Assembly (NCBI GenBank): GCA_944371445.1
Contig: CALVXR010000038.1
Span: 1-39,753, forward strand
Source of the DNA: an uncultured Bacilli bacterium
GTDB taxonomy: Bacteria; Bacillota_I; Bacilli_A; RF39; UBA660
Direction of reading: 5' to 3'
Length of the DNA: 39,753 nt
The notes under the pieces are model-generated. The model searched no databases and was not told the DNA's origin. It saw nothing but the letters and a program-made list of their open reading frames with translations. Position numbers and translations under genes: made by a program. Positions 25,683 through 31,325 of this stretch are shown here, one piece after another (position 1 is the first letter of the stretch; every line of letters starts with the position of its first letter).

Positions 25683-27794
25683 TTATTTAATTATTAAATT
25701 ATTATCTTTTACATCAACTTCTATAGTAGAATTAAATTTTATTTTATCAGCTATAATATTTTGAGCAATTAAAGTTTCTAAGTTTCTAGATACAAATCTT
25801 TTTATAGGTCTTGCCCCAAATCTTTCATCATAAGCGTTTTCTATTATATATTCTCTTGCTTCTTTAGATAAATTTATTTTAATTTTTTTATCACTTAAAC
25901 GATTTTCTATTTCTTTTATTATTTTATCTAATATATCATAAACAACTTCTTTAGAAAGTGAGTTAAATACTATTATTTCATCTATACGATTTATAAACTC
26001 TGGTTTAAATGAATGTTTTAATTCTTCCATAACTAATTTATCTGCATTTTCTTTATTTTCCAATATATGTTCACTACCTAAATTAGAAGTCATTATAATT
26101 ATTGTATTTTTAAAGTCTACAGTTCTTCCTTGTGAATTTGTAATTCTACCATCATCTAGTATTTGAAGCAAAATATTAAATACGTCTTTATGAGCTTTTT
26201 CTATTTCGTCAAATAAAACTATACTATATGGATTTCTTCTAACTGCTTCAGTAAGCTGTCCACCTTCGTCATAACCTACATAGCCAGGAGGAGCACCAAC
26301 TAATCTCGATACTGAATGCATTTCCATGTATTCACTCATATCTATTCTTACCATATGTCTTTCATCATCAAAAAGTTCATATGCAAGTGATCTAGCAACT
26401 TCAGTTTTACCTACACCTGTTGGTCCTAAAAATATAAATGAACCAATTGGTCTATTAGGATCTTTTATTCCTGCTCTACTTCTAAGTATAGCTTCACTTA
26501 CAAGTTTTAATGCTTTATCTTGTCCTTTAACTCTTTTTCTAAGATTTTCCTCTAAATGTAAAAGTTTTTCTTTTTCTGTCCCTACTAATTTACTAACAGG
26601 GATATTAGTCCATTTAGAAATAATAGATGCGATTGATTCTTCATCAACAGTATCACTTAATATTTTAGAATTGTCTTGTTTTCTAAGAGCCTCTAGTTCA
26701 CTTTCAAGCTTAGGAAGAACACCATGTCTTATTTTAGCAGCCTCTTCTAGATTATATTCATTTTCAGCTTGCTCTAATTTAAATTTATTTTTTTCAATCT
26801 CTTCTTTCTTTTTATTTATTTTATCATTAATACTTTTTTCTTCTTCCCAAGATTTTCTAAGTTCTTTTTCTTTTTCTTTCATTTCTGATAATTTTTTATC
26901 TATTTCTTCTACTCTTTTTACTGATATATCATCTTTTTCTTTTTTTAGTGCTTGTCTTTCTACTTCAAGCCTCATAATGTTTCTAGATAATGTATCTAGT
27001 TCTGTTGGAACTGAATCCATTTGTACTCTTATAGTAGCACATGCTTCATCAATTAAATCAATTGCTTTATCAGGTAAAAATCTATCTGTTATATATCTAT
27101 CTGATAAAGTTGCTGCTGCTACTATTGCTTTATCTTTAATGTTTACGCCGTGGTAAACTTCAAATCTTTTTTTAAGACCTCTTAAAATTGTAATAGTATC
27201 AAGTACATTTGGTTCTTTTACAAGTACTTTTTGAAATCTACGTTCAAGTGCTCCATCTTTTTCAATGTATTTACGATATTCATTTAAAGTAGTTGCACCA
27301 ATTACATGAATTTCACCTCTTGCAAGCATTGGTTTAAGCATATTTCCAGCATCCATTGCTCCTTCTAGGGCACCTGCTCCTACTATCATATGAATTTCAT
27401 CTATAAACATAATAATGTCACCATTACTATCTTTTACTTCTTTTAATACCGCTTTTAATCTTTCTTCAAATTCACCACGATATTTAGCACCAGCTATTAA
27501 CGCTCCCATATCAAGTTCCCAAATTGTTTTACCTTTTAATGATGCAGGAACATCCCCTTTTACTATTCTTTGAGCTAATCCTTCTATAATAGCAGTTTTA
27601 CCAACACCTGGTTCTCCTATTAATACTGGATTATTTTTAGTTTTACGAGAAAGTATACGAGTAATAGAGCGAATCTCATCATCTCTACCTATTACAGGAT
27701 CTACTTTACCATCTTTAACACTTTGAACAATATTTCTACCATATTTTTCAAGTGGTTTTTGTAAATTTTCTTCATAAGGATTTACTCCATTCAT
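25683..27794 (-). CDS. clpB: ClpB disaggregase lacking the N-terminal Clp_N domain
   Basis: GEPGVGKT and GPTGVGKT Walker A motifs, long coiled-coil middle domain, GYVG pore loop; the protein starts just before NBD1. Confidence 0.95.
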
Positions 27795-27973: not shown

Positions 27974-28780
27974 ATGAATAATGATGAAGCAAGATTTTTT
28001 ATAAAAAAAGTGATGGATGGATACAAAAAAAGAAAAAAAGAAAATAACCTTTATTCTAGTGATAATTTTATTCCAGAAAATATAATTACAACATATTATG
28101 GATTTGTAGATAAACCTAAATTTTCTTATATAATAAAAGAATATAAAAAACAATTTATCTTTAATGAGGCCAGAATTGAAACAAATGTTAGTAAAGAAGA
28201 ACAAATGGGGCTAGGAGAAATTTACGATTACATTGAAAATTTTGATTTTTCTAAAGATTATTTTAATATCTTTGTAACATCTTTACTACTTCATCAAAAA
28301 CTATATTCAAAATGCCCAGATCCTAGTTTTGGAGGGAGTTTACGTGATACTGATCCTATCATGTATGATTTAAATATGGAAATTCCAACTGCTAGTGAAG
28401 CAAAAAAAATATTTAATTCGTATATAAGCAGTTCAAATGATATATTTAAACCTCTTGAAAGTAACGACATTTTTGGATATATAAATAATTGTGTTATATT
28501 AGTAACGAATTTAATTAAATTACAACCTTTTGCTGACGGTAATAAAAGAACATTTAGAGCTTTATTAGCATTACTGTTAAAAAAAATAGATATACCACCT
28601 ATATATGTTGAAATTAGTGAAAGAGACGAATATAAAGAATGCTTAATAAGAGGAATGAAATATGAAGATTATACTAGTATAATTAGATTTTATTATTATA
28701 AAATCTGTGATGCAATTATGACACTTGATATAGAAAAGTCGCATATTAATGAAAGTGAAAAAATTTTTCAAAAGAAATAA
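27974..28780 (+). CDS. Fic/Doc-family protein with non-canonical active site
   Basis: LQPFADGNKRTFR versus HPFxDGN(G/K)RxxR; LLHQKL and GGSLR upstream. Confidence 0.88.
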   Translation: MNNDEARFFIKKVMDGYKKRKKENNLYSSDNFIPENIITTYYGFVDKPKFSYIIKEYKKQFIFNEARIETNVSKEEQMGLGEIYDYIENFDFSKDYFNIFVTSLLLHQKLYSKCPDPSFGGSLRDTDPIMYDLNMEIPTASEAKKIFNSYISSSNDIFKPLESNDIFGYINNCVILVTNLIKLQPFADGNKRTFRALLALLLKKIDIPPIYVEISERDEYKECLIRGMKYEDYTSIIRFYYYKICDAIMTLDIEKSHINESEKIFQKK

Positions 28781-28795
28781 TATAGAGTTTTAACT

Positions 28796-29302
28796 CTATA
28801 TTTTATTTTCGACAAAATCAATTATTTTATCTAATCTATCAATCACATAAAATCCTTTACTCTCTAAGTCTAAATTAAATCTAACACCAATTCCCCCTTC
28901 TTTTTCCCATTCTACTAAATTTTTAGAAAAATCATCAATAAGAATTGCGTCTTTAGCAGAAACCATCTTTGTTTTAGATATTTTCTTAGGAACTGTAATA
29001 ATTGTAATATCATCTAAATATTTTCTTAAATATTTTATTTTTTCTTCTGCTTCATAAAGTGTTGTTACATGTGTTAATATGTTAACATAAAATAAACCAC
29101 TATTAACTAATTTTTTTATATTTTCAAAACTATTATTAATTTGTTTAGAATCATTTAAAAATTTTTTCCAATCAAGTTTGCTATAAAACTGTGCTACTGC
29201 ATCATAATCTTTTGTATCAATACCTTCTTTTCTAATCATTTCATAAGAAGTTTCTATAGTATCAACAATTACACCATCAAAATCAATATATAAATTTATC
29301 AT
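28796..29302 (-). CDS. HAD-superfamily phosphatase (5'(3')-deoxyribonucleotidase-like)
   Basis: YIDFDGV, ILT, ILIDD and NLVEW...GGIG motifs; ATG 29302 follows AGGTGA. Confidence 0.85.
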   Translation of the reverse strand: MINLYIDFDGVIVDTIETSYEMIRKEGIDTKDYDAVAQFYSKLDWKKFLNDSKQINNSFENIKKLVNSGLFYVNILTHVTTLYEAEEKIKYLRKYLDDITIITVPKKISKTKMVSAKDAILIDDFSKNLVEWEKEGGIGVRFNLDLESKGFYVIDRLDKIIDFVENKI

Positions 29303-29318
29303 AATATCACCTAAAAAG

Positions 29319-29347
29319 ATTGTAACACATACATTAGTTCGTGTCAA
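29319..29347 (-). promoter_or_regulatory. Sigma-A promoter with LexA-box-like site in the spacer
   Basis: TTGACA-17-TACAAT with extended TG; CGAACTAATGTATG at 29328-29341. Confidence 0.65.
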
Positions 29348-29368: not shown

Positions 29369-29572
29369 TTATTCAGCTGTTTTAACAACTTCTTTACCTT
29401 TGTATGTACCACAAGCTTTACATACTCTATGTGGTCTTACTTCTTCTCCACATTTTGGACATTTAACTGTTGCATTTTCACTAATTTTGTAATGTGTTCT
29501 TCTTTTTCTTCCTCTAGTTTTACTTACTTTTCTAAATGGAACAGCAAATAATTGTAATTCTAATTTCATCAT
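29369..29572 (-). CDS. rpmF: 50S ribosomal protein L32 (Zn-ribbon type) with 8-9 aa N-terminal extension
   Basis: [20 protein letters not shown] and PHRVCKACG; downstream of yceD; GAGGTG RBS. Confidence 0.97.
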
Positions 29573-29587
29573 TTATAACACCTCTTT

Positions 29588-30076
29588 TCATTTAAATAAA
29601 TCTTTTAATTTAGCAAATTCAGGATTTATATTTTCTTCTTCTTCATCCTCTTCGATTAATTTCCATCCCTTACCCTCTTTTTTTATTGAAGATATATCAG
29701 AGTTTACAACTCTCATGGGAATTTCCATTAATATATTTTCCCATATTATTGGAAAAATATCAATAGTATTTTCTACTTTTTTTACATTTTCGTCTATTTC
29801 TTCAAGTAATGTTAATAAATTTTCATCTATTTTAATACTAAAATCATAATTTGTTGGTTTTAAAGAAATACTGCATGGCAAAATCATAGTACCATAAATA
29901 TCAAGTGATACGTAAAAATCATAATTTGAATTTCTAGTAATCTCACCCTCTACTTTAACATTATCTAAACTAATTATTTTAGCTTTTTTTAGTAGATCTT
30001 CTGATACTTGTAAATTTTCATTTATTATGACCTTATCTTCAATACCATTTTTTAGTTTTATTAAATCAATAAACAA
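29588..30076 (-). CDS. yceD: YceD/DUF177 family protein
   Basis: LPCSISL, ENILMEIPMR and INPEFAKLKDL motifs; TTG start after GGTGG; synteny with rpmF. Confidence 0.9.
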   Translation of the reverse strand: MFIDLIKLKNGIEDKVIINENLQVSEDLLKKAKIISLDNVKVEGEITRNSNYDFYVSLDIYGTMILPCSISLKPTNYDFSIKIDENLLTLLEEIDENVKKVENTIDIFPIIWENILMEIPMRVVNSDISSIKKEGKGWKLIEEDEEEENINPEFAKLKDLFK

Positions 30077-30179
30077 TATATCACCACCAAGCGTTATAAT
30101 TATACTAAAATTAATAAAAAAAATCAATATATATTTATTAATTAAAAAGAGTATGTTATTATAAAAAAAAGGAGGCACC

Positions 30180-31325
30180 ATGAAAGCAACTGGAATCATA
30201 TGTGAATATAATCCATTTCATAATGGTCATATTTATCATCTAAATAAAGTTAAAGAATTAAATAAAGATAATTGTATTATTCTTGTTATGAGCAGTTATT
30301 TTATGCAAAGAGGAGAAGTAAATATTTTAAATAAATGGGATAGAACTTCTATTGCACTCCTTTATGGAGTTGATATTGTAGTAGAGCTTCCATTTGTATT
30401 TGCTACTCAAAGTGCTGATACATTTGCATATGGAGGTATATCTCTTTTAAATTACTTAAAAGTAGATAATATTGTATTTGGTAGTGAAACAAGTGATATA
30501 AATGAATTAACTGAAATAGCAAATATTCAAAATAGTTCAAATTATAATATGTCAGTAAAAAAATACTTAGATAAAGGTCTTAATTATCCTACATCTATGA
30601 GTAAAGCTTTATATGAGCTTGGATTAAATAAAATTGATAACCCTAATGATTTACTTGGAATCAGTTATATAAAAGCTATAAATAAATTAAATAGCAATAT
30701 AACCCCTATAGCAATAAAAAGAACAAATTCATATCATAATAGTGATATAAATAACAGTATAGTGAGCGCTAGTACTATCAGAAGTAATTTAAGAAATAAT
30801 ATTAATATGGATCATACAATTCCAAAAGAAACTAAAAATAAGCTAAACAGAATTATTACTATGGAAGATTATTTTCCTATTTTAAAATACAAAATTTTAA
30901 CCGAAGATGATTTAGATAAATACAAATCTGTTGATGAAGGTTTAGCACCTAAAATAAAAAAAGAAATTTTAGATTCTAAAAGTTATGATGAATTAATAAT
31001 GAAAATTAAATCAAAAAGATATACTTATAATAGATTATCTAGAATGTTTACTCATATATTATGCAATTTTACTAAAGATGAAGATATCCATACAAAAGAT
31101 ATTGATTATATAAGAATACTTGGGTTCAGTAAAAAAGGAAAGCATTATTTAAATCAAGTAAAAAAAGATATAAATATTCCTGTAATAACTAATTATAAGA
31201 AAAACACAAGTAAAATTCTAGAACTTGAATTTAGAGCTACAAAAGCATATGCCTCTATATTTGATGAAGAAACAAAAATAAAAATTATTAAAGATGAGTA
31301 TCAAAAAAAGCCTATTATTAAATAA
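30180..31325 (+). CDS. tmcAL: tRNA(Met) cytidine acetate ligase
   Basis: GIICEYNPFHNGH, QRGE, FGSE, PNDLLG, SASTIR and KRYT motifs; divergent from yceD as in Bacilli. Confidence 0.93.
   Translation: MKATGIICEYNPFHNGHIYHLNKVKELNKDNCIILVMSSYFMQRGEVNILNKWDRTSIALLYGVDIVVELPFVFATQSADTFAYGGISLLNYLKVDNIVFGSETSDINELTEIANIQNSSNYNMSVKKYLDKGLNYPTSMSKALYELGLNKIDNPNDLLGISYIKAINKLNSNITPIAIKRTNSYHNSDINNSIVSASTIRSNLRNNINMDHTIPKETKNKLNRIITMEDYFPILKYKILTEDDLDKYKSVDEGLAPKIKKEILDSKSYDELIMKIKSKRYTYNRLSRMFTHILCNFTKDEDIHTKDIDYIRILGFSKKGKHYLNQVKKDINIPVITNYKKNTSKILELEFRATKAYASIFDEETKIKIIKDEYQKKPIIK

Follow-up and report, generated by a model that had tools for sequence, protein, structure and literature searches.

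An L27-like N-terminal leader on ribosomal protein L32 in one family of uncultured Bacilli

The rpmF gene of an uncultured Bacilli bacterium places nine codons ahead of the alanine that directly follows the initiator methionine in leaderless L32 proteins of the same family. This raises the question of whether these codons are translated, whether they are inherited or a peculiarity of a single genome, and whether they specify a pro-peptide of the type that the protease Prp removes from ribosomal protein L27.

The rpmF gene and its leader codons

In the window (the whole stretch of 39,753 nucleotides analysed here), rpmF occupies positions 29369-29572 of the minus strand and encodes 67 amino acids. 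On that strand a ribosome-binding site, GAGGTG (29579..29584, minus strand), read directly from the sequence, is separated by the 6-nt spacer TTATAA from ATG ATG AAA TTA GAA TTA CAA TTA TTT GCT GTT CCA. Codons 1-9 (29546..29572, minus strand) give the leader MMKLELQLF, of nine residues before Ala10, or eight if the second ATG is used. They are followed by mature L32 (29372..29545, minus strand), a protein of 58 aa that begins AVPFRK and carries a CxxC...CxxC zinc ribbon, and by the stop codon (29369..29371, minus strand). The Pfam model Ribosomal_L32p (PF01783) matches residues 10-64 (E 2.3e-22, 79.3 bits, cut-off 21.3), and since the match begins at residue 10, the first nine residues of L32 lie outside the family model. 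Cysteines C38, C41, C51 and C54 are invariant in 50 aligned L32 sequences. Genome-wide, this is the single L32 match of the host, whose draft assembly comprises 1.19 Mb on 100 contigs, with 24.6% G+C and an estimated completeness of 91%.

From the second ATG (codon 2) up to the GCT codon of Ala10, the rpmF sequence holds no ATG, GTG or TTG, so the leader has to be translated. The preliminary description of this locus had argued as much from the position of GAGGTG before ATG ATG and from the lack of a later start, and reading of the sequence bears it out. A wrongly assigned start, with translation beginning at or near Ala10 and the leader codons forming 5' untranslated sequence, would find some encouragement in the many relatives with methionine at P2 (..Q-M-F'A, the apostrophe marking the boundary before Ala), where an internal ATG lies two codons before the alanine. 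The window itself, however, offers no such internal start, its ribosome-binding site is 6 nt from the first ATG and about 30 nt from Ala10, and in relatives the encoded residues are kept while codons change synonymously, which makes this explanation extremely improbable.

Immediately 5' of rpmF lies yceD (DUF177; 29588..30199, minus strand; PF02620 on residues 98-201, E 1.8e-15), and yceD-rpmF is a usual gene pair. The first 60 or so residues of the annotated yceD frame are hydrophobic and overlap a divergent gene (30180-31325, plus strand); because PF02620 covers residues 98-201 only, the true start of yceD is probably downstream of its first ATG. On the other side of rpmF, a gene for a Fic/DOC-domain protein (27974-28780, plus strand; Pfam E 2e-7) is flanked by clpB (25683-27794, minus strand) and by a weak NT5C-like 5'-nucleotidase (28796-29347, minus strand).

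Prp, L27 and the candidate cleavage site

Prp, a cysteine protease of family C108, is studied as a narrow-spectrum antibiotic target. In the host genome rplU, prp and rpmA are consecutive on contig C40, separate from the contig carrying rpmF, so that the rplU-prp-rpmA arrangement and the L27 leader, on which the proposal in the preliminary description depends, are both present. The host Prp, a protein of 104 aa encoded between rplU and rpmA, matches PF04327 with 82.9 bits (cut-off 27) and aligns with S. aureus Prp (4PEO/7KLD) at E 7.2e-13. Its residues H20, D29 and C32 align with S. aureus H22, D31 and C34, which the available text of PMC9405229 names as the dyad and the essential Asp, and His20, Asp29 and Cys32 are invariant in 41 Prps of the host's family.

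The host L27 starts MKFMDLELQLF followed by AHKKGQGSTKNGRD, reading AHKKGQG past the expected cut, and the seven residues LELQLFA are common to L27 and L32. In the accessible part of PMC9405229, the L27 leader motif is given as MLxx(D/N)LQ(F/L)F'A with A-(S/H)-K-K on the P' side, and the leaders range from 8 to 15 residues in length. The P side of L32, K-L-E-L-Q-L-F before Ala, fits the Prp-substrate motif, with Glu at P5 as in the host's own L27; its P' side is A-V-P-F and departs from the published A-(S/H)-K-K of L27, residues that form part of the mature L27 protein. If Prp reads P2'-P4', L32 could therefore be a poor substrate. Leaderless orthologues of the family start M'AVPFRK, and a cut between F9 (29548-29546) and A10 (29545-29543; minus strand) would yield the same N-terminus minus the initiator Met, in agreement with the earlier claim that cutting after LQLF would give the normal mature L32. 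A complex prediction with two Prp copies and L32 residues 1-40, run without controls, scored 0.15 against a mark of 0.32 and is taken neither as support for binding nor as evidence against it.

The divergent P' side, together with the frequency of lineage-specific extensions in ribosomal proteins, would also fit an extension that stays on mature L32 as a lineage-specific feature, its likeness to the L27 leader being a relic of its origin. We consider this unlikely: the conserved positions coincide with the motif that Prp recognises, up to its final F'A, in organisms that have Prp; tails that bind rRNA do not share the hydrophobic and acidic character of this extension; and close relatives with identical mature sequences do without it.

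The pattern [LIMFV]x[LIV]Qx[FL][AS], scanned over 4556 open segments of at least 50 aa in the host genome, gave 18 matches, six of them with a start codon within 20 codons upstream. These six are L32, L27, two matches internal to longer frames, and two short low-complexity frames, of 52 and 70 aa, in which the motif is followed by Ser. At the very N-terminus of a recognisable gene the motif was found in L32 and L27 only, and the search for further N-terminal carriers in the proteome that had been suggested at the outset leaves just these two as credible. Judged on motif, gene content and mature N-terminus, Prp probably cuts the L32 leader.

Distribution and conservation of the leader

Among 120 clusters of proteins close to this L32 that a search listed, 80 have the leader and 40 start MAVP, a proportion that the query's own leader words may have shifted in favour of leader-bearing matches. 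In all 80 leader clusters the residues immediately preceding AVP conform to [LIMFV]x[LIV]Qx[FL]. Of 60 related genomes, 59 have an L32 match, the one without being G008 (81% complete). The leader is present in 14 of the 36 L32-bearing genomes of the host's family, host included; these comprise all 6 of the host's genus plus 8 other genera. It is present in none of 24 related genomes that represent 17 other families. The RBS-encoded context just 5' of the start codon (..RGV.. / ..RSD..) is the same in relatives of both kinds, leaderless genes reading ..RSDTM'AVPF and leader-bearing ones ..RSDTMMKLDIQMF followed by AVPF. With the same upstream context leading into M'AVPF, the two forms differ by a precise indel that keeps the frame and spans the 8-9 codons separating Met from Ala.

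For wider scans a degenerate DNA pattern covering the leader and the first L32 residues (L-x-[LIMVF]-Q-x-F-A-V-P-x-[RHKQ..]) was used, which among 122 loci matched precisely the 14 leader-bearing ones. Across the host's family it detected the leader in 118 of 401 genomes (~29%), in 94 of 299 high-quality genomes and in 63 of 214 genera, and presence was mostly uniform per genus (e.g. 3/3 or 0/3). A sample of the phylum yielded one positive in 251 genomes, the host genome itself, with none in the two other members of the host's family that were drawn and none in 248 genomes from 25 other families; the reversed-pattern control was 0 in the printed rows of the 401- and 251-genome scans. A public collection with one genome per species contained at least 120 matching stretches, 119 of them true leader-bearing L32 genes and one a chance match in a Deltaproteobacteria record. 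When a profile of leader-bearing L32 was compared with 1.84 billion cluster representatives, 3084 matches were obtained, and the 10 with a leader among the best 150 all had the host-family type of mature L32. The leader is thus inherited and not an oddity of one genome, and it is confined to one family of small-genome gut bacteria within the scope searched systematically, namely the host's family and 25 sampled families of its phylum. As to its occurrence across Bacilli and Mollicutes, a point raised in the preliminary description, the leader is kept in relatives of one family and was not seen to spread beyond it.

The leader-bearing L32 records of the public collection are gut MAGs titled Bacilli, Tenericutes or Mollicutes bacterium, one being Candidatus Fimihabitans intestinipullorum, which NCBI places in Mycoplasmatota incertae sedis. 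Ten loci (L125, L127, L142, L147, L149, L161, L174, L176, L191 and L196) come from records titled Muribaculaceae, Ignavibacteriales or Paratractidigestivibacter and have L32 near-identical to that of Bacilli/Tenericutes gut MAGs, probably because the bins are mislabelled or contaminated. A separate observation concerns a protein of 1317 residues (P0129), in which the zinc-ribbon part of the L32 profile matches 18 separate stretches, forming a long L32-like zinc-ribbon array.

Within the family, the leader is constrained as a peptide. Among 111 distinct leader DNAs, P5, a position left free by the search pattern, is D in 71, N in 33 and E in 7; P7 is K or R in 91, and at P2 L or M predominates. 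Where residues are kept, codons differ synonymously at P7, P6, P5, P4 and P1, so that selection acts on the peptide and not on RNA. As P6, P4, P3 and P1 are fixed by the DNA pattern, this set says nothing on those positions, for which independent evidence comes from the 80-cluster protein set and from the L32 alignment. In that alignment of 50 sequences, whose leaders represent a hand-picked 49 of the 80 leader-bearing clusters, Q7 (P3) and A10 (P1') are invariant, and L4 and F9 are conserved in at least 90%. The motif is full even at ~52-60% L32 identity. The resulting pattern equals the published L27 motif, and in more than 200 species of one family the leader is conserved as a peptide.

Presence in the family is patchy. 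On a tree of L21, Prp and L27 (284 columns, quick method; G008, where L32 was not found, was left out), leader state, whether by gain or by loss, changes five times, on a weakly supported topology in which 10 of 57 branches are starred and the starred branches force only one change. Presence in 118 of 401 genomes and these changes indicate that the leader is easily gained or lost, is dispensable and cannot be indispensable to its carriers. One explanation, to which we give appreciable but minor weight, is that the leader is cut by Prp and is nevertheless a near-neutral add-on without any checkpoint function: a Prp site placed between Met and Ala would carry no cost, as Prp is always there for L27, and lineages would drift into and out of the leader-bearing state. 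The patchiness (118/401 genomes, 63/214 genera and 14/36 relatives), the five changes on the weak tree and the leaderless sister genomes that otherwise look alike all fit this explanation, and patchy distribution makes it a serious rival to a regulatory checkpoint. A near-neutral add-on would, however, be expected to decay or change in length, yet P6, P5, P4, P3 and P1 are constrained, the full motif persists as L32 diverges, and the state is stable within genera. This constraint would also be expected if an uncut leader were harmful, and so is no proof of benefit.

Association of the L32 leader with L27 and prp

Among relatives, 59 of 60 L27 loci combine the L27 leader with an adjoining prp. 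The remaining locus (L061) belongs to G051, a genome of the same class and another family that has neither; its L27 starts M'ASKKGVGSTK, making it a relative without the whole Prp system. No L27 was found in G005. L27 was also sought in 15 further leader-L32 genomes, nine with rare L32 P2 residues, five whose L32 falls in the same subclade or one next to it, and L198, picked as the near-twin of the doubtful case G074. Twelve of these have the L27 leader and an adjoining prp; G061, G062 and G065 yielded no L27 and no prp, as would be expected if a contig is missing. Altogether an L27 locus was located in 26 genomes with the L32 leader, and 25 of them have an L27 leader with prp beside it, so that the co-occurrence of L32 leader and prp envisaged in the preliminary description holds.

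The exception is G074, a 1.6 Mb bin titled Clostridia, in which a leader-bearing L32 lies on a 2.5-kb contig (loci L133/L254/L256), a leaderless L27 directly follows rplU, and no Prp match was found. G076 (L198/L255) has an L32 near-identical to that of G074, yet a normal rplU-prp-rpmA. Because L21 and L27 of G074 are strongly unlike those of G076 despite the near-identity of L32, G074 is, as far as its sequences indicate, probably a mixed bin of two low-G+C organisms. If it is not mixed, prp has been lost there and the L32 leader retained. This bin bears on the idea that a protease other than Prp removes the leader, which could also invoke the horizontally acquired Rrp, stated in the accessible part of a preprint to be able to cut the L27 leader in S. 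pneumoniae TIGR4 (bioRxiv 10.64898/2026.08.10.744006). With a Prp of intact catalytic dyad beside L27 in 25 of the 26 genomes, an L32 motif equal to that of the genome's own L27 leader, and G074 looking mixed, we regard removal by another protease as very unlikely, and Prp as the probable enzyme.

L32 and L27 leaders of the same genome resemble each other more than those of shuffled pairings. In 25 genomes, nine of them chosen for rare L32 P2 residues, 5.04 of 7 positions are equal within genomes and 4.34 in shuffled pairings, and one of 20000 shuffles reaches the own-pair value. By position, own L27 and L32 agree at P4 (I or L) in 24 of the 25 genomes, at P5 in 14 and at P2 in 12. Phylogenetically independent pairs give three contrasts at P4, with L32 changing in the same direction in 2.6 and in the opposite direction in none (p ~0.25, not significant), and no trend at P5 and P2. 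Since kin share states, the covariation is graded as suggestive only. Codons identical between the two leaders within genomes number 85 of 151 (0.56), against 0.60 in shuffled pairings. Gene conversion between the rpmA and rpmF leaders was discarded, there being no excess of identical codons, and recent DNA copying does not explain the likeness. Strict covariation at P2 was rejected as well, L32 QTF being paired with L27 QTF in one of four cases and L32 QLF with L27 QRF in two genomes. L32 QRF goes with L27 QRF in three of three genomes.

The N-terminal tail of L27 reaches the peptidyl-transferase centre. In part of the family, twelve L27 loci (G016, G019, G023, G024, G028, G036, L243, L244, L248, L250, L252 and L253) have a mature N-terminus AH(V/I)KAQGST instead of AHKKGQGST, with Val or Ile replacing a Lys of this tail.

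Maturation of pro-L32 and its possible meaning

Within the 50S subunit, bL32 has an extended N-terminal tail that lies buried in 23S rRNA. We infer a scheme in which L32 would be made as a pro-protein with a nine-residue leader of the L27 type, and in which host Prp would cut pro-L32 between Phe9 and Ala10. The cut would free an N-terminus equal to that of leaderless L32 after removal of its initiator Met. Until then the leader would keep the L32 tail out of its place in 23S rRNA, and Prp activity may, by analogy with L27, gate the supply of usable L32. The preliminary description had proposed a second ribosomal Prp substrate forming part of a proteolytic checkpoint. The first part is supported by the motif, the presence of prp and the conservation of the leader; a strictly required checkpoint fits poorly with a leader found in ~29% of the family. 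That a portable pro-peptide module has moved onto a second 50S protein, with Prp licensing both L27 and L32 and coupling their maturation, we put forward tentatively, as a possibility that is rather doubtful at present.

The closest parallel is the L27 system itself, in which, according to the available sections of PMC9405229, prp lies between rplU and rpmA, a short N-terminal leader ending in ..(D/N)LQ(F/L)F'A resembles that of L32, and cleavage uncovers the N-terminus with which a 50S protein functions. The present case differs in its carrier, L32, in having VPF and not (S/H)KK after the cut alanine, and in a leader that is optional in one family, whereas the long form of L27 is near-universal among the relatives. 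The same source, as far as available, describes two kinds of non-L27 proteins (PMC9405229). The phage 80alpha capsid and scaffold proteins gp46/gp47 have an L27-like leader and are cut by the Prp of the phage's bacterial host, so that the leader is portable and its P' side can differ from that of L27; these are phage structural proteins and L32 is a host ribosomal protein, and the comparison is by description, not by sequence. FlhB, a cellular protein that serves flagellar export and not the ribosome, has been put forward as a further Prp substrate because its N-terminus resembles the motif; in the host genome the N-terminal motif carriers found are L27 and L32 only.

Within the L32 family, mitochondrial bL32m (MrpL32) offers an analogy and no more, again from the accessible part of the source (PMC5438985): its N-terminal extension must come off before the protein can join the large subunit. 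There a 71-residue presequence without a sequence-specific site is degraded processively up to the folded zinc domain by the m-AAA protease, an ATP-dependent membrane enzyme unrelated to Prp. The L32 leader, with nine residues and a sequence-specific motif, is not a presequence of this type. As for bacteria, the consulted portion of a 2025 preprint calls other Prp substrates unclear, none having been found in S. pneumoniae (PMC12324487), and the available text of PMC9405229 names L32 once, as a tunnel protein. A literature search, with supplements and Wall et al. 2015 outside its scope, turned up no paper in which L32 is named among Prp substrates; the preliminary description, too, was aware of none.

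A practical consequence is that such L32 genes should not be trimmed to MAVP during annotation. For studies of Prp specificity, L32 would add another natural substrate, one whose P' side differs from that of L27, and paired sister lineages with and without the leader constitute a test bed for the benefit of ribosomal pro-protein synthesis. The presence of the same leader on a second ribosomal protein, in more than 200 species, suggests that the leader may work as a transferable module. If that reading is true, L27 at the peptidyl-transferase centre and L32 would be matured through one enzyme, members of this family would offer a bacterial parallel to mitochondria, where a protease gates the assembly of bL32m, and their leader-bearing and leaderless lineages would represent a natural experiment on what the leader is for.
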